Shown here: positions 19,082 through 54,775 of the stretch, one piece after another
Numbering within the stretch: position 1 is the stretch's first letter
Layout of the letters: every line of letters begins with the position of its first letter
DNA from: an uncultured Candidatus Saccharibacteria bacterium
Lineage (GTDB): Bacteria > Patescibacteriota > Minisyncoccia > Minisyncoccales > UBA10102
Assembly (NCBI GenBank): GCA_964359655.1
Contig: CAYHVI010000001.1
Span: 3,164 to 67,163 of the forward strand
Direction of reading: 5' to 3'
DNA: 64,000 nucleotides
Made by a program: the position numbers and the translations under genes
The notes under the pieces: model-generated
Databases searched by the model: none
Seen by the model: the letters and a program-made list of their open reading frames with translations, nothing else
Told to the model about the DNA's origin: nothing

Positions 19082-22000
19082 TATTTTCGGATGGCGAGAC
19101 GGAGAGTTTGGCCTTCTAATGAGAACTCTTCTTCTACATCAAACGTTTGCTCTGACCGATCGCCCTCGCGCATTTCTTTCAACCCAACTTGAGACATAAT
19201 TGCTTTTTCATTTTCTTGCAGAATTTCTTTCAGTTCTTCTGCGCCCGTGTAGCGCAAACGTATTCTGTCTTGCGGCTTGTACCCTGCCTGCTTTCTCATT
19301 TCCTGGATATGGCGCATTATCTCGCGCAATGTTCCTTCTCTTTGCAATACGGGAGTAATGGTGGTATCGAGTTCTACCCCTTCTTTCGCGTTCGGATCGA
19401 CCAGAACCTCTTTTACATTAAGTTCATCCTTTATCAAATCCAGCAATTCTTTCGTCATTTTTAATTTTTCACTTTTAATTTTGAATTTTTGGAGCGGCTG
19501 TCTCACTTTTATTCCGACCTTCGCCCGTTCTGCCAATCCTTCTGCAACCAGCTTGCGAACTTGCATCATTTTTTTCTCGAGCTCTGCGTCAATTTTTTTT
19601 GAATCTGCTTTGGGCCAATTTTGCCAATGTACACTTCCCCTGCCCCCAAGTTCACCATAGATATACTCGCTCAAAAACGGGATGAGTGGCGCGGTCAACT
19701 TGCTGACTTCCAAAAGTACGCATCTTAAAACGCCTCTGGCTTCCTGAAGCTCTTTTTTGCTCTTGGGGTTTTGGGAACGTTGTCGAGAACGTCGAATATA
19801 CCACAAAGAGAGATCGTCGATCACAAAACTTTCGAGCACGCGCGCAGTTCCTGTGATGTCGTATTCATCAAACCTTTTGGTTGCCTCTCTTGTTATGGAG
19901 TGGATTCTCGAAATAATCCACTTATCTAAGATATTTTTTGTTTTGAGGTTTTGGGTTTTAGGGTTTGCTTGAGCATTGAGTCTTGAGGTTTGGGATTTTT
20001 TATATGTTTGGTAGAACACAAAAGAGTTCCACAACGTCAAAATAAATTTGCGCATTGTTTGCTGCAAATCTTTTTCCGCAAATAGTTTGGAATCCCACGG
20101 CTGGTTCAATGTATAAAAATACCAGCGAAGCGTGTCCACTCCATACTTTGCAATCATATCCCAAGGATTTACCACATTTCCTTTGGACTTGGACATTTTC
20201 TCGCCTTTCTCATCAAGCAAATGCCCCAAAGAAATTACGTTTTTGTATGGCGCTTTCAAGCCCAACGCCGTAGCCACAGCCAAAAGCGTATAAAACCATC
20301 CGCGTGTTTGGTCGATTGCTTCGCAAATATAATCTGCGGGGTAACCTTCCACGCCAGAAGCAAACGGCATGGAGCCTGAATCAAACCATACATCCACGAC
20401 GTCTTTTACGCGTTTCATTTGCCCTTTGCCACATTTTCCGCACTGAAATTCGATCGCATCAATGTACGGCCTGTGCAAATCAAGTTCCATATCTTCGTTC
20501 ATGGGAAGCCTCGCGAAAGCTACACGTCTTAACTCTCCTGGTTCAACTGCTTTTTTTTCGCGGAACTGCACGAATTTTTCTCGCGACATTCCCTTCATCG
20601 TTTTCTCCAACAAAGAAAGAGGTATCTCATGACTTACCAAAACAATGCGTTTCCCTTGATACTTTTTTTCTATTGCGGCTAGCAAATCAAACACGCGCTT
20701 TTCAACATCGACCCAATTCTCTCCCTGCGGCGGCCGTTCCACAAATCTACGCAGATAATGCTCCTGGATCGTTTCTCCTTCTTTTCTAAAGTATGCTCCA
20801 AACTCACGAATGTGCTTTCCATTGAAAATGCCTACATTAAGTTCTCGTAGCCGCGCATCGTAGATAATTTGCGCGCCAAGTTTTTTCCCAATGATTTCGG
20901 CAGTTTGTTTCGTTCGCAAAAGATCGGATGAAAAAATCAAATCAATGTTTTTGCGCAACAGACCTTCTGCGATTTTTGTAATTTGTTTCACTCCCTTGGG
21001 CGTCAAAGGAAACGGATCCGCCTCAGGATACGAACCCAAAATCCCCGTTACTTGACGCATAGAATGGCCGTGCCGCAAAAGATAGTACGTGTTTCCCGAA
21101 GTTCTTTGTTTTTTGAGATCGTCCAGAGAACCTATGACTTCCAAATGATCGCACGAACTGCACTCCCACACAGGTAAAGGAGTACCCCAGTACCGTTCTC
21201 TCGAAAACGCCCAGTCTTTCACCTCGGCCAACCATTCACCCATCCTGCCTACTTTCATATGGCTCGGAATCCAATTAATCTGTTGGTTATTCGAAATGAG
21301 ATCTTTTTTAATCTTCTGCATATTCACAAACCAGCTTTCTTTTGCGTAATACAGCAAAGGAGTCGAACACCTCCAGCAAAAAGGATATTCGTGTTCATAC
21401 AACTCTTCTTTGAACAAAAGATTTCTTTGCTTTAAATCTTCAACAATCAGAGGTTCTGCTTCTTTCACGAATACTCCTTGCCATTGAGGCACTAATTCGT
21501 TGAACTTTCCTTCTTCGTCTACCGTATGCCTTTTGGGAAGATTTAGTTTTTGCCCGAGCTTGTAATCGTCTTCTCCGTACATCACCGCAGTGTGCACAAC
21601 TCCTGTTCCTTCCTGCGTAGAAACAAAATCCGCCAGTGCCACATAATGTTTTTTCTCTGGCTGGCTTTTGAGAGAATCAAAAAGCGGTTCATATTCTATA
21701 CCTTCAAGGTTTTTTCCTGAAACTTCTTTGAGAATTTCGTAATCTCCCTGAAGAATCTTTAGAAGATCTTTGGCAAGAATATATATTTCTTCTCCTTGTT
21801 TTACTGCGACATACGAGATATTTTCCCCTACCGCAAGAGCGACGTTCCCAGGCAGTGTCCACGGTGTTGTTGTCCACGCCAACAAAAACAATTTTGAATT
21901 TTGAATTTTGAATTTTGAAATTGTTTCGGATTTCGAATTTCGGATTTCGAATTTCACAAAGACGGTTCTGTCTTTGACCGTCTTGTACCCTTGCGCCAAT

Positions 22001-22596
22001 TCATGCGACGACAAAGGAGTCCCACAACGCGGACAATAAGGCACCACTTTGTAATCTTTATATAACAATCCTTTCTTCCAAAACTGCTGGATAATCCACC
22101 ATAGACTCTCCATATAATTCTTCTCATAGGTGATGTACGGATTATCGATGTCTAACCAAAAACCTATGCGCTCTGTAAGTTCATCCCATTCTCTTTTATA
22201 TTCCCATACCGACTGTTTGCATTCTTTATTGAATTTTGCGATCCCGTATTGCTCAATTTCTTTTTTGGACTTTAATCCAAGTTTTTTCTCAACCTGCAAC
22301 TCTACGGGCAGACCGTGAGTATCCCAGCCAGCTTTTCTGCCAACGTAAAATCCCCGCATTGTTTTGTAGCGGCATATTACGTCTTTAAAAACCCGCGAAA
22401 GAACATGATGAATTCCGGGACTTCCGTTTGCCGTGGGAGGGCCTTCAAAAAATACAAAACGAGGAGAGCGCTTTCTCCTCTCAAGAGATTTTTCAAACGT
22501 TTTCTGCTCTTTCCACCGCTTCAGTATCTGCTCTTCCAACTTCGAAAAATCAGCTTCCATGCTCTTTAGAATACTACGTTTTGCATACCTTTTCAA
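19081..22596 (-). CDS. ileS: Isoleucine--tRNA ligase with an inserted histidine-phosphatase (PGAM-like) domain and two in-frame repeat insertions
   Basis: HIGH-type signature (…PTANGSPGIHHV…), KMSKS (KMSKSKGN), and editing and anticodon-binding domains. Residues ~498-703 (nt ~20488-21105) form a histidine-phosphatase domain (…YYLLRHGHS… plus …VLVSHE…). It sits between the conserved …YWGTPLPVWEC… and …HRPYID…WFDSG… segments. Confidence 0.9.
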   Translation of the reverse strand: MKRYAKRSILKSMEADFSKLEEQILKRWKEQKTFEKSLERRKRSPRFVFFEGPPTANGSPGIHHVLSRVFKDVICRYKTMRGFYVGRKAGWDTHGLPVELQVEKKLGLKSKKEIEQYGIAKFNKECKQSVWEYKREWDELTERIGFWLDIDNPYITYEKNYMESLWWIIQQFWKKGLLYKDYKVVPYCPRCGTPLSSHELAQGYKTVKDRTVFVKFEIRNSKSETISKFKIQNSKLFLLAWTTTPWTLPGNVALAVGENISYVAVKQGEEIYILAKDLLKILQGDYEILKEVSGKNLEGIEYEPLFDSLKSQPEKKHYVALADFVSTQEGTGVVHTAVMYGEDDYKLGQKLNLPKRHTVDEEGKFNELVPQWQGVFVKEAEPLIVEDLKQRNLLFKEELYEHEYPFCWRCSTPLLYYAKESWFVNMQKIKKDLISNNQQINWIPSHMKVGRMGEWLAEVKDWAFSRERYWGTPLPVWECSSCDHLEVIGSLDDLKKQRTSGNTYYLLRHGHSMRQVTGILGSYPEADPFPLTPKGVKQITKIAEGLLRKNIDLIFSSDLLRTKQTAEIIGKKLGAQIIYDARLRELNVGIFNGKHIREFGAYFRKEGETIQEHYLRRFVERPPQGENWVDVEKRVFDLLAAIEKKYQGKRIVLVSHEIPLSLLEKTMKGMSREKFVQFREKKAVEPGELRRVAFARLPMNEDMELDLHRPYIDAIEFQCGKCGKGQMKRVKDVVDVWFDSGSMPFASGVEGYPADYICEAIDQTRGWFYTLLAVATALGLKAPYKNVISLGHLLDEKGEKMSKSKGNVVNPWDMIAKYGVDTLRWYFYTLNQPWDSKLFAEKDLQQTMRKFILTLWNSFVFYQTYKKSQTSRLNAQANPKTQNLKTKNILDKWIISRIHSITREATKRFDEYDITGTARVLESFVIDDLSLWYIRRSRQRSQNPKSKKELQEARGVLRCVLLEVSKLTAPLIPFLSEYIYGELGGRGSVHWQNWPKADSKKIDAELEKKMMQVRKLVAEGLAERAKVGIKVRQPLQKFKIKSEKLKMTKELLDLIKDELNVKEVLVDPNAKEGVELDTTITPVLQREGTLREIMRHIQEMRKQAGYKPQDRIRLRYTGAEELKEILQENEKAIMSQVGLKEMREGDRSEQTFDVEEEFSLEGQTLRLAIRK

Positions 22597-22615
22597 TTAC
22601 CAAATATCCTTTCAA

Positions 22616-22653
22616 ATACTACAAAGTATTGCCATGGCAAGAAGTTGTAGTAT
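22616..22653. promoter_or_regulatory. Nested palindrome ATACTACAA-agta-TTGCCATGGCAA-gaag-TTGTAGTAT (candidate operator between the PaaX-like gene and ileS)
   Basis: A perfect 9-bp inverted repeat flanks a perfect 12-bp palindrome. A near-copy lies on the other side of the PaaX-like gene at 23235-23273. Confidence 0.5.
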
Positions 22654-23231
22654 CAAAGTTTGAAGTATTTTCGAATCTCGCGATCAGCACCAATGTCTCT
22701 TGCCACAATCACTCTTAACTCTTTCTCGCTTAAAGCAAAGAATTCTCGTAAGAGCCCTATTTCGTCCTTACAGTTATATGGGTGAACCCAGACGCTTTTC
22801 TGAAGAGGATACAAGTTCAAACGCTTTAAAAATCCTCGCAAAGCCTCTCGCTTTATTCGCTGCGGCTGGACAATGTCGAAAATAATAATCCTCCAATTTC
22901 CATCCCACTGTTTTGGTTTCTTTATTTCCAGACTATTCACCTGAAACCTTCCTGCCTTCCTTCTTCCCTCTTCAGTGAGAGAAATATAAATCTGATGATT
23001 ATGCTTTTCCACCTTAATATATCCGTCCCGCCGTAATCGAGAGAACGTATCATATATCTTTTTTCTGCCGTATTTCTTCCTTCCAAGAAATGCTCTTAAG
23101 AGATTAGTGCCGAAATAGGGAGATGAGGAGGCGACCACCATTGCACCTCCCGCCGCAAGCCAAGTAAGAATATCTTTCGTAATCTCTGGCTTCGGTTTCT
23201 TTAGATAATATTTGTACTTACTCATATACAT
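22653..23231 (-). CDS. PaaX-family-like winged-helix transcriptional regulator, short form (paralog 1)
   Basis: N-terminal wHTH (…IYDTFSRLRRDGYIKVEKHNHQIYISLTEEGRR…) and the PaaX_C core motif (WDGNWRIIIFDI…LYPLQKSVWV), which resembles E. coli PaaX …WDGKWLLLL…. A 192-aa paralog is at 53769-54347. Confidence 0.55.
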   Translation of the reverse strand: MYMSKYKYYLKKPKPEITKDILTWLAAGGAMVVASSSPYFGTNLLRAFLGRKKYGRKKIYDTFSRLRRDGYIKVEKHNHQIYISLTEEGRRKAGRFQVNSLEIKKPKQWDGNWRIIIFDIVQPQRIKREALRGFLKRLNLYPLQKSVWVHPYNCKDEIGLLREFFALSEKELRVIVARDIGADREIRKYFKL

Positions 23232-23234
23232 AAT

Positions 23235-23273
23235 GGTACTACAATTTATTGCCTAGGCAAAACTTCGTAGTTT
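23235..23273. promoter_or_regulatory. Palindrome TACTACAA-ttta-TTGCCTAGGCAA-aact-TCGTAGT overlapping the start region of PaaX-like paralog 1
   Basis: Second copy of the site found at 22616-22653, located 4-10 nt upstream of the gene's start codon. Confidence 0.5.
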
Positions 23274-23418
23274 CTTAATAGTTCCTAACGAGTTCGTCAA
23301 CGACAGAAACTTTTCAATCGTTCCGCATTGCTCAAATCACCTTTTTAATGCTTTTTCAATTTGAAGTATAATGGCTTAGTATCTATTGTACCTTTTACGG
23401 AAAGGAGATTGAGTAACA

Positions 23419-23816
23419 TGACTCTCAAGGAATGGTGGGAAAAACTTTATGACACTGTGCGTCTAAACGACTCTGGGGAATCTATTAAGTTCTTGGGACG
23501 TGAACCATCTTCCTTACTCCGAAGAGCAATCATGGAAGCCGATAACCCCTTTCCCCTGTCTCTCGGAGAACAGCTGCTCAACATAATCGCACAAGAACTT
23601 TTGAATCGGAATGTAGACCGTGGGGAGCGCATCTCAAATTTATTTGCAATAATAGTAAGTCGCTGCACAAGGACACTACGCGAGAAAGCATTAGGAGAGC
23701 TCATTGTTCTTGATGCAAAAGAACAAGTGGAAGATAGCATTATGGCTGTCGCTCTCCAGCGTCTTCCCTCGTTCTGCCCTTGGGATCCGAGATATTCGAG
23801 TTTGCTCAATAAATGA
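23419..23816 (+). CDS. Hypothetical protein (~132 aa)
   Basis: ORF with an AAGGAGA RBS 8 nt upstream of the ATG at 23419. I recognise no motif. Confidence 0.4.
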
Positions 23817-23857
23817 GGGCGGCAAAACCTTTTACGGTTTTGTCGCCCTCTAACTTT

Positions 23858-24304
23858 TTAAATTCGGGGTCCGTAGTTTCGCTTCTTCATCCCGAAGTTT
23901 ATGAAGGCTTCCAACTTGTGCACGTGGGGAATCTTCCCCACCTTCTCGCGCAAGAACTTGCTGAGCTCCTCCTGCGAACACAAGGTAGCCCAGATGAAGA
24001 TATCAAAAGAACCCGTGGTCATCATCACCCAGTTGACCTCGCTCAACTCCGCAAGGGCGTTCTCTACGCAGTTCACCATCCCTGGCTTTGCCTGAATACC
24101 TACCAATACCTCTGAGGTGTAACCGAGTTTCGCAGGATCGGGCAGCGCCACCATTTTTATGTATCCTTCGCTGATTAACCGTTTCAGCCGACGCCTCACC
24201 ACTTGCTCACTCACTCTCAATAGTCTTGCGATGTAGGCTTTGGAGCGTACAGCGTTCTCTTGTACCATCTTGATGATTTGCAAATCGAGATTATCTAATT
24301 CCAT
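23858..24304 (-). CDS. lrp: Lrp/AsnC-family transcriptional regulator (GC-rich gene)
   Basis: HTH_AsnC (…LDLQIIKMVQENAVRSKAYIARLLRVSEQVVRRRLKRLISEGYIK…) plus a C-terminal RAM domain. GC is clearly above the local background. Confidence 0.8.
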   Translation of the reverse strand: MELDNLDLQIIKMVQENAVRSKAYIARLLRVSEQVVRRRLKRLISEGYIKMVALPDPAKLGYTSEVLVGIQAKPGMVNCVENALAELSEVNWVMMTTGSFDIFIWATLCSQEELSKFLREKVGKIPHVHKLEAFINFGMKKRNYGPRI

Positions 24305-51349: not shown

Positions 51350-53293
51350 ATGAAATTCAGCTTAGTATCAAAATTCCGTCCGACTGGCGACCAACCGCAG
51401 GCAATTGCAAAACTAGTCTCCAATATCGAAGCTGGTGCAAAACACCAGGTGCTTTTGGGCGTTACGGGCAGCGGCAAAACATTCACCATGGCGAACGTAA
51501 TTGAAAAAACTCAAAAACCCACCCTCGTGATTTCGCCAAACAAAACTTTAGCCGCCCAACTCTACCAAGAATTCAGAGAGTTTTTCCCTAAAAATGGCGT
51601 GCACTACTTTGTTTCTTACTATGACTATTACCAGCCAGAGGCCTATATTCCCCAGTCTGACACGTACATCGAAAAAGATTCAAAGATCAATGATACCATA
51701 GATCGCCTGCGACACGAGGCAGTTCAAGACGTGCTCTCTAAAAAAGATGTCCTCGTGGTGGCTTCAGTTTCTTGCATTTACAACATTGGATCTCCTGAAG
51801 ATTACCAGAATATTGCTTTGGATGTAAAACTTGGCCAAAAAATTGAGCGGAAAAGCTTTCTTGCCCACATTACCGCGCTCCAGTACCAAAGGAATGATAT
51901 TGATTTTAAACCCGGAACCTTCCGAATCCGTGGAGAAGTAACGGAGATATTTGCAGTTACCGGAAAAGAACTTATCCGTATTGAATTTTCCGGCGACCAT
52001 ATTGAAGGACTCGCGCTTTCCCGCGATATCGTCAATCCTGCGTACAGCGCCACGGAAACCTACCGATTTTTCCCTGCGAAATTTTGGGTAACACCACAAA
52101 ACAAACTCTCGCTCGCAATGGAAAACATTCGTTCGGAGCTCTCTTGGCGCCTCCAAGAACTGCGCAAGCAAAACAAGGTGCTCCAAGCCCAACGTTTGGA
52201 ACAACGCACCAATTATGATTTGGAGTTAATACAAGAATCAGGATATTGTCACGGAATTGAAAATTATTCGCGGCATCTCGAATTTCGAAACGCGGGAGAT
52301 CCTCCGTATACGCTTTTGGAATACTTTGGCAAAGATTTTCTCTTTCTTGTTGACGAAAGCCATCTTACCCTTTCCCAATTGAAAGCTATGGCAGTGCAAG
52401 ATCGGGCGCGCAAACAAGCGCTGGTCGAACACGGATTCCGCCTACCCTCCGCGCTTGACAATCGCCCCTTAACCTTCAAAGAAACGTTCGAACGCGTTCC
52501 TCAAACCATATACATATCTGCTACGCCTGCCGTATTCGAACTCTCAACATCAAAACCTCATATCGCAGAACAACTCATTCGACCTACGGGATTGCTGGAG
52601 CCTGAAATTGAAATTCGGCCAACTACAAATCAGATCCAAGACATAATTAAAGAAATTGAAAAGCGCAAAGCAAAAAACCAAAGAGTACTCGTGCTTACTC
52701 TCACCAAACGTTTGGCAGAAGACATTGCAGATTATTTGGCGCAAAGAAACATTGCAGTCCAATGGCTCCATTCTGAAGTAAAAACACTGGAGCGGCCCGG
52801 AATTTTAGAGGATTTCAGAAGGGGCAAATATGATGTGATTGTGGGTATTAACCTTTTGCGGGAAGGTCTTGATTTACCCGAGGTCAGCCTCGTTGCCATT
52901 CTTGATGCAGACAAAGAAGGATTTTTGCGAAACGAAACCACCTTAATCCAAACCATGGGAAGAGCGGCGCGACATCCTGAAGGAAAAGCGATTTTGTATG
53001 CAGACGTCATGACTTTTTCAATAAAAAACGCTGTTGCAGAAATTGCGCGCCGGAAAAAAATACAGCAAGAATATAATAAAAAACATCACATTGTCCCGCA
53101 GCCAATAGTAAAAGAAATCAGAAAATGGGGGTTTGCCGACGCAAAAGAAATAGCAAAGGCAGAGTTTGGCCCAATTCAGGATGTAAAACTTCTTGAAAAA
53201 GAAATGAAGGAAGCTGCCAGCAATCTCAACTTTGAACGCGCCGCCCAAATCCGCGACCTCATCAAAAAGTTAAAAACGAAAAGTGCCAAGTGA
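51350..53293 (+). CDS. uvrB: Excinuclease ABC subunit B
   Basis: …F.LVSKFRPTGDQPQAI… N-terminus, Walker A GVTGSGKT, a beta-hairpin, helicase motifs and a C-terminal UVR domain. Confidence 0.93.
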   Translation: MKFSLVSKFRPTGDQPQAIAKLVSNIEAGAKHQVLLGVTGSGKTFTMANVIEKTQKPTLVISPNKTLAAQLYQEFREFFPKNGVHYFVSYYDYYQPEAYIPQSDTYIEKDSKINDTIDRLRHEAVQDVLSKKDVLVVASVSCIYNIGSPEDYQNIALDVKLGQKIERKSFLAHITALQYQRNDIDFKPGTFRIRGEVTEIFAVTGKELIRIEFSGDHIEGLALSRDIVNPAYSATETYRFFPAKFWVTPQNKLSLAMENIRSELSWRLQELRKQNKVLQAQRLEQRTNYDLELIQESGYCHGIENYSRHLEFRNAGDPPYTLLEYFGKDFLFLVDESHLTLSQLKAMAVQDRARKQALVEHGFRLPSALDNRPLTFKETFERVPQTIYISATPAVFELSTSKPHIAEQLIRPTGLLEPEIEIRPTTNQIQDIIKEIEKRKAKNQRVLVLTLTKRLAEDIADYLAQRNIAVQWLHSEVKTLERPGILEDFRRGKYDVIVGINLLREGLDLPEVSLVAILDADKEGFLRNETTLIQTMGRAARHPEGKAILYADVMTFSIKNAVAEIARRKKIQQEYNKKHHIVPQPIVKEIRKWGFADAKEIAKAEFGPIQDVKLLEKEMKEAASNLNFERAAQIRDLIKKLKTKSAK

Positions 53294-53320
53294 AAAATTC
53301 CCCAGAAAAAGTTGACAAAA

Positions 53321-53356
53321 GTAATGTTGGTGCTATTATTATATAAGCACTCAGTA
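53321..53356 (+). promoter_or_regulatory. Strong sigma70-like promoter (TTGACA-17-TATTAT) with a downstream AAGGAGGA but no adjacent start codon
   Basis: ttgacaaaagtaatgttggtgctattattatataag, followed by cagtaaggaggaac. Confidence 0.45.
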
Positions 53357-53724
53357 AGGAGGAACAGAACAGCTTAAGGCTGTTCAACGAGCCTCTGAGA
53401 AAAGCTCTTGGAAGGAACTCGCGCAACTAGCACCTACTACTCTCGGGAAGGAAAGCCTAGAATTAACGGCTCTGTTGAGTCAGGAGTTCGGGATCTCCAT
53501 CTGCATACTTGTAGACTTTTCGTCTGGGAACACGGGAGGTCACGACGACCCAGTTTTTCAAGCCAGCATTGATCACTACGTTGGAGAGCTCAAAGAATTG
53601 AGTGAGCGCAATGCTCGTTCGAAAACACCCACAACCGAATAGCTGGGAGTTTTATTTTATTCTCATAAACCCTTTTATCATAATCTTCTAACCTTAATTT
53701 CCTGATCTCATCCGGTCAAATATA

Positions 53725-53764
53725 TTACTTTGTTAATTCAACCATGGTATTATTAATAAAGTAA
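53725..53764. promoter_or_regulatory. 40-bp palindrome TTACTTTgTTAATtcaaCCATGGtattATTAAtAAAGTAA immediately upstream of PaaX-like paralog 2
   Basis: Near-perfect dyad centred on CCATGG. It ends 5 nt before the ATG at 53769. Confidence 0.5.
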
Positions 53765-53768
53765 GCTT

Positions 53769-54347
53769 ATGAAGTATACATATTATTTTCGGAAGCCAAA
53801 ATCGGAAGTGGCGAAAGATATTTTCCAATGGCTTCTGATAGGAGGGATGATAACCGTTGCAGCAACATCACCTTCCTTTGGCATTCATGCATGGCGAGCG
53901 TTTCAAAAGTGGCAGCAGAAAAAGCAATATCAAAAACGCAATTTTTCCGATATCTTTACGCACCTGCACCGAAAGGGACTGATTGACATAGAGCAACATG
54001 GACACAATCTTCATATTGCTCTTACTCCAAAGGGACGACAACTCGCAGGTTATCTTCAAATCGACTTCCTTAAAATCCAGCGACCAAAAATTTGGGATAA
54101 AAAGTGGAGACTTGTAATGTTTGATATTTCTCAACCAAAACGCAGGCATCGAAACGCTCTACGGGGCAAACTCGAAGAATTAGGATTTGTTCTGTATCAA
54201 AAAAGTGTGTGGCTGCACGCATTTGATTGCCGCAGTGAAATCGCAATACTCAAAGATTTCTTTGGACTCAAAGAAAATGAGATCTCCCTCATAGTGGCAC
54301 AGAAAATTGATCGAGAGGGCTATTTTAAAAAGCGCTTTCGAATATAA
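53769..54347 (+). CDS. PaaX-family-like winged-helix transcriptional regulator, short form (paralog 2)
   Basis: Same architecture as 22653-23231: a wHTH (…FTHLHRKGLIDIEQHGHNLHIALTPKGRQ…) plus the WDKKWRLVMFDI…LYQKSVWL core. Confidence 0.55.
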   Translation: MKYTYYFRKPKSEVAKDIFQWLLIGGMITVAATSPSFGIHAWRAFQKWQQKKQYQKRNFSDIFTHLHRKGLIDIEQHGHNLHIALTPKGRQLAGYLQIDFLKIQRPKIWDKKWRLVMFDISQPKRRHRNALRGKLEELGFVLYQKSVWLHAFDCRSEIAILKDFFGLKENEISLIVAQKIDREGYFKKRFRI

Positions 54348-54375
54348 CCCTCTCCTTAACTTTCTCACAAGGTAT

Positions 54376-54414
54376 ACTTCATTAAGAGTACCATGGTATT
54401 TTTAATCAAGTAAC
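54376..54414. promoter_or_regulatory. Palindrome ACTTcATTAAgagtaCCATGGtatttTTAATcAAGT downstream of PaaX-like paralog 2 (second copy of its cognate site)
   Basis: Dyad centred on CCATGG. It shares ACCATGGTATT(A/T)TTAAT(A/C)AAGTAA with the upstream copy. Confidence 0.5.
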
Positions 54415-54499
54415 ATTACCGATCTCCCTTACACGAAGAGAAAAGCGAAAAACGCGCCGTTCTTTACATTTTTCTCTTTTCGTTTTACACTTGCTCCAT

Positions 54500-54775
54500 A
54501 TGGCAATTACAAAATCAGCGAAAAAGGCTCTACGGCAAAACGCCACAGGAAAAGCAAGAAATCTCAAGAGAAAAAACACCTTTAAGACTCTGATTAAGCA
54601 GGAAAAGAAACTCGTTGAGCAAAAGAATTGGGAAGAAGCGCAAAAGCTTTTGCCCAAACTCTACAAGGCTTTGGACAAAGCTGCACAGCGCGGGGTTCTG
54701 AAGAAAAATACCGCGGCAAGAAAAAAATCGCGGCTTACCAAATTCTTCCGAGCAAACCTTAAAGTTGGGCAATAA
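54500..54775 (+). CDS. rpsT: 30S ribosomal protein S20
   Basis: MAITKSAKKALRQN…. Confidence 0.88.
   Translation: MAITKSAKKALRQNATGKARNLKRKNTFKTLIKQEKKLVEQKNWEEAQKLLPKLYKALDKAAQRGVLKKNTAARKKSRLTKFFRANLKVGQ

Follow-up and report, generated by a model that had tools for sequence, protein, structure and literature searches.

The 64,000-nucleotide window analysed here (the whole stretch taken from contig CAYHVI010000001.1 of an uncultured Candidatus Saccharibacteria bacterium, assembly GCA_964359655.1) contains two paralogous genes for small proteins resembling the repressor PaaX, hereafter mini-PaaX, and each gene is bracketed by its own pair of imperfect palindromes (dyads). These dyads are probably the private operator pair of an autoregulated mini-PaaX repressor encoded between them. 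Computationally, the site-gene-site architecture was found to be conserved throughout the family, with a specificity private to each unit and with co-variation between protein residues and dyad bases. This co-variation, from which we infer binding, indicates that the encoded protein reads its palindrome with both a winged helix and a Cas2-like domain.

The unit of paralog 2 (53769-54347, + strand) encodes a protein of 192 amino acids (aa) with an N-terminal hydrophobic helix, a winged helix and a Cas2-like domain, identical to the hypothetical protein AAB524_00245 from a metagenome-assembled genome ('Patescibacteria group bacterium'). Its upstream dyad, the predicted operator (53725-53764; TTACTTTGTTAATTCAACCATGGTATTATTAATAAAGTAA), is CCATGG-centred, with the centre between 53744 and 53745, the core ACCATGGT, the outer blocks CTTTG and TAAAG, and 16 of the 20 arm positions paired. 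The downstream dyad, a predicted second operator that is likewise CCATGG-centred, has its best 40-mer at 54374-54413 (centre between 54393 and 54394; 16/20 pairs), the centre being 46 nucleotides (nt) from the stop codon. The right arm of both dyads is the 24-mer ACCATGGTATTWTTAATMAAGTAA, with no mismatches, and no further match to it was found in the window at up to three mismatches (0 expected in shuffles); a repeat search returned the pair as 44 nt at 77% identity. Overall, 40-nt dyads with 16/20 pairs appeared at four positions in the 64 kb, compared to 0.02 per shuffle, and three of these four were bracketing dyads of the two paralogs. The site-gene-site arrangement given for paralog 2 in the preliminary description was therefore real, with its sequences and coordinates as reported there, except that the gap between the upstream dyad and the ATG at 53769 is 4 nt (GCTT) instead of 5; the same 4-nt gap is kept with the dyad in the orthologous loci L082 and L083. 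A third dyad with 16/20 pairs (AGAGGGCTATTTTAAAAAGCGCTTTCGAATATAACCCTCT, 54314-54353) spans the paralog 2 stop codon.

Paralog 1 (22653-23225, − strand) encodes a mini-PaaX-like protein of 190 aa and was the single paralog of paralog 2 found by tblastn of the window, at 43-45% identity. An alternative ATG at 23231 would give 192 aa, while the family N-terminus M-S-K-Y-K-Y-Y favours the ATG at 23225. Its upstream dyad (23235-23274; ACTACgAAgTTTTGCCTAGGCAAtAaaTTGTAGT) is centred between 23254 and 23255, with the core GCCTAGGC and the outer blocks ACTAC and GTAGT, and its downstream dyad (22615-22654; ACTACAAcTTcTTGCCATGGCAAtAcTTTGTAGT) is centred between 22634 and 22635, with the core GCCATGGC, 16/20 pairs and an outer end overlapping the TGA stop codon. 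The layouts are thus ACTAC-N8-GCCTAGGC-N8-GTAGT upstream and ACTAC-N8-GCCATGGC-N8-GTAGT downstream. The pattern ACTAC-N8-GCCWWGGC-N8-GTAGT, allowing up to three mismatches, matched the window at these two dyads only (0.01 matches expected), and a scan of the 64 kb with the read positions only, again at up to three mismatches, gave no operator copies for either paralog beyond the four dyads. Each paralog therefore has its own dyad pair in a common layout, as had been described. The 'two-member family' proposed at the same time holds for the 64 kb, but the family itself is far larger, with at least about 2,700 clusters at 50% identity.

To cover the family, 80 loci were taken from species-representative genomes and 80 from metagenomes, these being the best-scoring 160 of more than 1,000 matches, and three further loci with paralog 2 orthologs were added (L081, L082 and L083). 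Dereplication at 85% identity left 129 loci with both flanks, from Patescibacteria genomes and metagenomes, in which the best 36-mer shared by the two 200-nt flanks of the gene was determined. The median of this shared 36-mer was 29 identical positions out of 36 within loci and 21 for flanks from different loci. Matched dyads at ≥27/36 were found in 99 of the 129 loci but in only 9 of 637 mismatched controls, and at ≥25/36 in 114 loci against 28 controls. Both copies were good dyads in 101 loci, typically with 13-16 of 18 pairs compared to 4.7 at random positions. The distance from the stop codon to the centre of the downstream dyad had its mode at 19-21 nt, with the dyad starting at the stop codon, while that from the upstream centre to the ATG had modes near 29-30 and 39 nt; the median centre-to-centre distance of paired dyads was 638 base pairs (bp). 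Moreover, perfect dyads (18/18 pairs) were found 11 times downstream and four times upstream. Additional dyad copies appeared in seven of the 101 loci over 672 kb, mostly as tandem duplicates.

The gene order ruvA-uvrB-X-rpsT-holA was kept by the orthologs of paralog 2 at 77-87% identity and by locus L001 at 59%. Both dyads were kept in L082 and L083, while those of L081 were degenerate and those of L001 had diverged in sequence. The preliminary description had named related genomes with the gene but without flanking dyads as what would speak against it; a matched pair was present in 77-88% of the 129 loci, and the syntenic orthologs keep it, so that the observation withstood this check. On the other hand, recent mobility of the unit, which had been raised as a possibility, is not supported, as orthologs at 59-87% identity lie in the same synteny.

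A few loci carried more elaborate arrangements. In L045 (2775-3796), dyad arrays with a period of 64-66 bp flank the family gene, three dyads upstream and four downstream, and more than 100 nt of flank, including the spacers between dyads, are repeated between the two sides at 85-92% identity; the spacers are thus repeated, unlike those of an array of clustered regularly interspaced short palindromic repeats (CRISPR). In L055 (1355-3605) the order is site, 369-aa gene, site, site, regulator and site, and in L070 (256-2220) it is site, 186-aa gene, site, 128-aa open reading frame, site, regulator and site. The repeated use of one dyad in L055 and L070 is reminiscent of a small local regulon, or else of an array of cassettes.

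Distinct blocks emerged from an alignment of the sites centred on the dyad axis, in which each locus contributed four half-sites for comparison. In the outer block (positions −17 to −13), the four half-sites were identical in 73-83% of loci, while the entropy between loci was 1.4-1.9 bits, and this is a predicted locus-specific specificity block. Positions −12 to −9 were A/T only, followed by a spacer (−8 to −5) in which the half-sites agreed in only 33-46% of loci. In the core, position −4 was G in 74% and A in 25%, position −3 was C in 99% of loci, position −2 was variable between loci but constant within each locus and position −1 was mostly A, giving the half-site pattern (G/A)-C-n-A. The outer blocks are about 30 bp apart from centre to centre, with 24-25 bp between them. 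The 9-4-core-4-9 spacing initially proposed is thereby refined to the blocks −17 to −13, −12 to −9, −8 to −5 and a core from −4 to +4.

Mutual information was calculated between the columns of the protein alignment and the consensus bases along the site. Residues 129, 125, 122 and 145 ranked highest for the core, and residues 122-132 make up helix α1 of the Cas2-like domain. Glutamate at residue 129 appeared with G at −4 in 63 out of 63 cases, and asparagine or aspartate with A in 24 out of 33; glutamine at residue 122 went with C at −2 (32/37) and A at −1 (40/40), glutamate there with G or T at −2, and asparagine with T at −1 (10/11). For the outer block, the top columns were 57, 59, 60, 61, 64 and 65, which correspond to the predicted recognition helix of the winged helix, with Y65 accompanying A at −13 (28/29), K57 accompanying C at −16, Y60 accompanying A at −17, and D or N at residue 61 accompanying G or T, respectively, at −15. 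As related sequences inflate mutual information, kinship was controlled for with a neighbour-joining tree built from the remaining columns, on which parsimony changes of base and residue were tested for falling on the same branch. Such coincidences were found for residue 129 and position −4 (8/11, p = 3e−8), residue 122 and −2 (14/31, p = 1.6e−4), residue 61 and −15 (13/34, p = 2.8e−4) and residue 65 and −13 (12/29, p = 2e−4), while p exceeded 0.1 for each of twelve control pairs that involved other variable residues.

Both paralogs of the window fit this code. In paralog 2, codons 122-132 (54132-54164, + strand; Q122, R125, R128, N129 and R132) encode the helix α1 that co-varies with core positions −4 to −1, and N129 goes with A at −4 and Q122 with C at −2 and A at −1 of the core ACCATGGT, while codons 57-69 (53937-53975, + strand; R57, S60, D61, T64 and H65) encode the recognition helix that co-varies with positions −17 to −13. 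Paralog 1 combines E129 and Q122 with the core GCC(A/T)(T/A)GGC, and Y60, K57 and R65 with the outer block ACTAC. Asparagine with adenine and glutamate with the cytosine of a G:C pair are usual major-groove chemistry, which argues for duplex DNA as the ligand. Furthermore, among 101 proteins R128 was invariant and R132 was 99% conserved on the same face of α1, and the two arginines would be well placed to read the G:C pair that is invariant at −3.

Regarding the protein itself, both paralogs matched the Pfam family PaaX_M (PF20803, a Cas2-like domain), with E-values of 8e−17 for paralog 2 and 5e−17 for paralog 1 and 61-62 bits against a cut-off of 24, and both gave weak winged-helix matches (DUF6293_C, PadR and TrmB). 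Scores against the PaaX equivalog TIGR02277 were 30 and 38 bits, below its cut-off of 264.55, and no match to the ligand-binding domain PaaX_C was found, the proteins ending at 190-192 aa right after the Cas2-like domain. For the Cas2 family TIGR01573, paralog 2 reached 24.5 bits, equal to the cut-off, and paralog 1 reached 13.7 bits. An AlphaFold2 model of paralog 2, made with a 113-sequence alignment (mean predicted local distance difference test score 79.8), comprised two long N-terminal helices of low confidence (residues 11-31 and 35-54), a wing formed by a β-hairpin after a helix at 62-68, and a confident β-α-β-β-α-β domain at residues 113-190. A Foldseek search with this model returned Escherichia coli PaaX (8a39) as the best match, followed by dozens of Cas2 structures with probabilities of 0.9-0.99. 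D119, the aspartate at the Cas2 catalytic position at the end of β1, was invariant in the 101 proteins.

The hydrophobic segment at about residues 18-40 is found across the family, with a median of 1.65 for the best 19-residue Kyte-Doolittle window and 62% of proteins reaching 1.6, while paralogs 2 and 1 are borderline (1.42 and 1.2, respectively); it is a possible membrane anchor. Before this helix, the peptide M-x-K-Y-K-Y-Y-F-R-K-P-K-S-E-I-x-K-D-I (53769-53830 and 23225-23165 in the window) is near-invariant in the main clade and missing in distant members. Part of its conservation could act at the RNA level, since the mRNAs appear to be leaderless.

A profile search of 1.84 billion representative sequences gave 2,739 clusters at 50% identity (E ≤1e−10), nearly all of 180-200 aa; members of the family are annotated as 'hypothetical' or mislabelled as Cas2 or PaaX. 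Genomes often had two or three copies, and the close homologs of paralog 2 belonged to Wildermuth-, Nealson- and Staskawiczbacteria, while 2.9 million viral contigs yielded a single weak match. Defence-system libraries gave only domain-level Cas2 and winged-helix matches, and domain searches found no transposase domain. The neighbours of the paralogs were uvrB, rpsT, holA, ileS and an AsnC-like gene, with no paa catabolic genes nearby, and neither in the window nor at the orthologous loci were there cas genes among the neighbours.

The upstream sites also have the marks of promoters. In these sites, a −35 element TTGCnA forms the left half of the core, starting at −6, and TATAAT follows at +16 or +17; this geometry, at a score of at least 9, was found in 12 of 54 upstream sites and in none of 54 downstream sites. 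−10-like hexamers ended exactly 6 nt before the start codon in 23 of the 101 loci, against a background of about six per position, and 5-9 nt before it in 54 loci, compared to 14 with a Shine-Dalgarno-like motif, so that the mRNAs of the family are, judging from these motifs, probably mostly leaderless. This agrees with the early remark that the upstream dyad leaves no room for a separate Shine-Dalgarno sequence, which is missing because that dyad overlaps a predicted, mostly leaderless promoter. In particular, the predicted −10 of paralog 2 (TAAAGT, 53757-53762, + strand) lies within the right arm of the dyad, 6 nt before the ATG, and the predicted promoter of paralog 1 (23233-23260, − strand) comprises the −35 TTGCCT (23260-23255), which is the left half of the dyad core, a 16-nt spacer and the −10 TACCAT (23238-23233), 7 nt from the ATG at 23225. 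Both rpsT (54463-54502) and ileS (22560-22596) likewise lack a Shine-Dalgarno sequence and carry a −10-like hexamer whose end lies 6-8 nt before the ATG, and leaderless mRNAs may be common in this genome.

In the mechanism that we favour, each 36-40-bp dyad would be bound by the mini-PaaX protein encoded between the two copies, in the form of a dimer. The recognition helices of its two winged helices would read the outer blocks (−17 to −13 and +13 to +17), and the Cas2-like domains would form the central dimer, with their α1 helices reading the core, (G/A)C-n-A on one side of the axis and T-n-G(C/T) on the other. With the −10 in or beside the right arm and the −35 often provided by the TTGCnA half of the core, a dimer sitting on the upstream dyad would block the promoter; occupancy should thus repress the gene, and such negative autoregulation upon binding is moderately supported by the overlap. 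The downstream operator is under selection, tied to the stop codon, independent of the neighbouring gene, devoid of promoter geometry and usually the more perfect palindrome. Most likely it would act together with the upstream site, the two being joined by a loop of about 640 bp so that local occupancy rises; alternatively, or in addition, it would be a protein roadblock that ends or insulates transcription at the 3′ end of the gene. Looping and/or roadblock is the favoured mode of action that we infer for it, and private operators of the enclosed protein are the best-supported reading of the dyads at the sequence level.

Several observations weigh against this reading or are not predicted by it. 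The upstream and downstream copies share non-palindromic positions, in direct register in 15 loci and in inverted register in six, which implies that the sites have undergone copying or gene conversion from one to the other, in either orientation. Near-perfect inverted copies were observed in L015, L020 and L061 (37-40 of 40 positions). In addition, a compensatory change that is symmetric and falls outside the read block was observed in L082 and L083, and together with the shared register this points to concerted evolution or to selection for self-complementarity, which simple operator selection does not predict. Among the 101 loci, asymmetric cores were oriented relative to the gene (GGTC in 15 and GACC in three), hinting at a strand-specific aspect; further oriented variants were TATC (9, against one GATA) and TATG (8, against three CATA), and the core half on the upstream side of the gene departed from symmetry more often than the other half. 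The promoter calls are consensus matches only, and paralog 2 has no convincing −35. The helical phasing of paired dyads gave p-values of 0.3-0.8 in Rayleigh tests at 10, 10.5 and 11 bp, which is neither for nor against a 640-bp loop. Finally, the family-wide figures refer to the best-scoring loci, and in the most distant members, among them Kaiserbacteria-type loci, the downstream dyad is often the only one to be seen.

Two other explanations concern the role of the dyads in gene expression. That the downstream dyad is an operator for the next gene, giving two regulated promoters in a row, was an idea of the preliminary description for rpsT or ileS and is now very unlikely. About 70% of the downstream neighbours are co-directional, the same dyad precedes adjacent co-directional genes in L055 and L070, and some downstream sites are followed by −10-like TAT.. 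motifs; however, no conserved target gene was found across the loci, the neighbours being unrelated housekeeping genes of both orientations. Convergent neighbours account for as many as 27% and have equally good dyads (14.2 vs. 14.6 of 18 pairs), and in L028 the dyad lies between two stop codons only 59 nt apart. The distance to the next gene start is broad (24-546 nt) while the spacing to the regulator stop is tight, and the upstream-type promoter geometry is absent from the downstream sites. In the window, the predicted promoters of rpsT (54463-54491, TTTACA-17-TACACT) and ileS (22596-22568, − strand, TTGAAA-17-TATTCT) are separate, about 105 and 75 nt beyond the respective dyad centres. It is also quite unlikely that the dyads act as RNA, namely as 5′ and 3′ stem-loops on their own mRNA (in stability, translation control or factor-independent termination) with a symmetry selected for hairpins. 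The downstream dyads of the window fold at −14 to −15 kcal/mol (z of −3.4 and −4.5; −15.2 kcal/mol for paralog 2) and the upstream ones at about −10 kcal/mol (z about −2); the position of the downstream dyad right at the stop codon and the compensatory change in L082 and L083 would also fit a hairpin. On the other hand, no U-tract follows the downstream dyads in the window or in the family profile, so that the dyads are not ordinary terminators, as had been stated from the outset; their stems are A/T-rich and a terminator scan does not call them. The mismatches gave no clear sense-strand hairpin signature, with G/T exceeding A/C downstream (42 vs. 26, p = 0.07) but not upstream (34 vs. 46). 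Moreover, most loci have a −10-like box 5-9 nt before the ATG, either within the upstream dyad or immediately behind it, and the dyad would then not be transcribed from that promoter; the pairing of E with G:C and of N with A:T fits readout of the major groove of B-DNA, the spacer (−8 to −5) is not kept complementary, and Rfam gave no relevant match at E-values up to 1 over 53250-54520.

The remaining two explanations assign the unit a different nature. It might be a present or former mobile or recombining cassette, with the dyads as its ends or recombination sites (terminal inverted repeats, attC, pdif or hairpins of the IS200/REPtron kind) and a Cas2-like domain that is nucleolytic or synaptic. 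Such a cassette would account for the compact dyad-gene-dyad unit with gaps of 0-30 nt, for the many different gene neighbourhoods and the several units often found per genome, for copies that have evolved together, in direct or in inverted register, for the repeated flanks and tandem arrays of L045, for the dyads bracketing neighbouring genes in L055 and L070 and for the invariant D119. It is nonetheless quite improbable, given the conserved synteny of orthologs at 59-87% identity, dyad sequences specific to each unit instead of many identical copies, the age of the within-genome paralogs (43-45% identity) and the single match among viral contigs; in addition, no transposase or integrase was found nearby and no target-site duplications were seen. 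An architectural role, in which the protein binds the dyads as a membrane-anchored tether or bridge of its own locus, centromere- or Noc-like, with orthogonal paralogs marking different loci, is unlikely as well. The hydrophobic N-terminal helix is conserved despite sequence divergence and was modelled as a long helix of low confidence, the best PDB sequence matches to the winged helix include the centromere-binding AspA, and each unit has a private pair of sites, extended to arrays in some loci; but the hydrophobicity of the two window proteins is borderline, both flanks of the segment are positively charged, leaving the topology ambiguous, no ParA-like partner is adjacent, and the promoter overlap of the upstream dyad is better explained by regulation.

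Considering the private-operator reading further, a wider proposal can be put forward, plausible if more tentative. The Cas2-like domain would be a sequence-reading module, its α1 helix lying in the major groove at the centre of the dyad (with the 129/122 code and R128/R132 on −3), and together with the winged helix it would define thousands of orthogonal regulator-operator pairs in Patescibacteria, each laid out as dyad, leaderless gene and dyad, with the operators clamping the gene by a loop or roadblock, possibly at the membrane. If this is true, it suggests that PaaX, and perhaps Cas2 in its ancestral form, contacted DNA through a common surface. The genomes of Patescibacteria (the candidate phyla radiation) are tiny and encode very few recognizable regulators, and gene control in these bacteria is almost uncharted. 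The proposed mechanism and its residue-to-base code can be checked by point mutants, and they suggest a role on DNA for the Cas2-like middle domain of PaaX-type repressors, for which no structure of a PaaX-operator complex had been reported as of a 2022 review (PMC9493321). The second private operator at the regulator's own stop codon, by which the gene is clamped between its own operators, represents an unexplained design principle, and such orthogonal, compact (about 700 bp), leaderless and self-regulated units are possible synthetic-biology parts. Within the journals covered, which were not all, no paper was found that describes this family, base readout by PaaX- or Cas2-like domains, or regulators that are as a family flanked by operators of their own.

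Other features were observed in the window. The isoleucyl-tRNA synthetase (19084-22560, − strand) has a complete His_Phos_1 domain (residues 493-667, E-value 1.8e−33) inserted within its class-I catalytic domain. Directly after the uvrB stop codon, within 53312-53642 (+ strand), there is a near-consensus promoter, TTGACA-16-TATTAT with a TG extension, and the gap between uvrB and paralog 2 continues with AAGGAGG and an open frame of 94 codons (53358-53642), which lacks a canonical start codon and gave no Pfam or Rfam match. The corresponding slot holds plsY in the ortholog locus L081 and nothing in L082 and L083; a plsY remnant was looked for between uvrB and paralog 2, and none was found. Just after the AsnC/Lrp-like gene (23858-24304, − strand), a G+C-rich dyad at 23813-23852 (GAGGGCGGCAAAACC..GGTTTTGTCGCCCTC) looks like an ordinary terminator, unlike the A/T-rich operator dyads.

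Regarding known systems, small genes between two imperfect palindromes are also found in IS200/IS605 elements, REPtrons (RAYT plus REP), integron cassettes (attC) and pdif modules, which share with mini-PaaX the occasional site-gene-site-gene arrays (L070 and L055). Unlike these, mini-PaaX has no HUH/Tyr transposase, integrase or Xer context, its sites are unit-specific and not dispersed, its orthologs are syntenic and its co-variation points to readout of the duplex major groove. An insertion sequence, miniature inverted-repeat transposable element or REPtron was accordingly rejected (no transposase domain, each dyad type only at its own gene, syntenic orthologs), as was an integron cassette with attC (no integrase in the loci, 36-40-bp sites identical on both sides of one gene, arrays in only two or three of the 101 loci). 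AspA and ParB-type proteins resemble mini-PaaX in their winged helix and in palindromic sites by their own gene, with arrays in some loci, but mini-PaaX has no partition ATPase nearby, comes as several chromosomal paralogs with orthogonal sites and has a site that overlaps the core promoter.

With Cas2 and VapD, mini-PaaX shares the β-α-β-β-α-β fold and, with Cas2, the signatures F-D-I at the end of β1 and QxSVW. In E. coli Cas1-Cas2-protospacer structures, the Cas2 dimer sits on the middle of the duplex and arginines near the start of α1 contact DNA. Mini-PaaX differs in having neither cas1 nor a CRISPR array nearby, in the fusion of the domain to a winged helix and in an α1 that appears to read bases. 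As with LacI (O1/O2), GalR (OE/OI) and DeoR, an operator at the promoter is accompanied by an auxiliary one that lies hundreds of bp off, either within the transcribed region or past its end, and is the nearer of the two to an ideal palindrome; unlike in these looping repressors, the auxiliary site of mini-PaaX lies at the regulator's own stop codon, where it is conserved family-wide, and its loop is a proposed one.

The closest relative is PaaX itself, the phenylacetyl-CoA-responsive repressor of the paa genes in E. coli (PDB 8a39 and 3L09), in which a winged helix is likewise followed by a Cas2-like central dimerization domain. Its operator in E. coli is TGATTC(N27)GAATCA, and it represses its own promoter by steric hindrance (PMC9493321). 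This long dyad with half-sites N27 apart has its counterpart in the 5-bp block, N24-25 and 5-bp block of mini-PaaX, whose sites would be of the PaaX type, as two short inverted repeats at a comparable distance that overlap a predicted promoter. Mini-PaaX differs from PaaX in its length (190 aa vs. 316 aa, without the C-terminal ligand-binding domain), in the extra N-terminal hydrophobic helix and conserved KYKYYFRKP motif, in the absence of paa genes nearby, in a conserved operator core that co-varies with the Cas2-like helix and in the two private operators bracketing the gene. A PaaX-type repressor with its operator is of an already known kind, while two of its features, a Cas2-like domain that reads bases and a gene bracketed by its own operators, would, if confirmed, be new.

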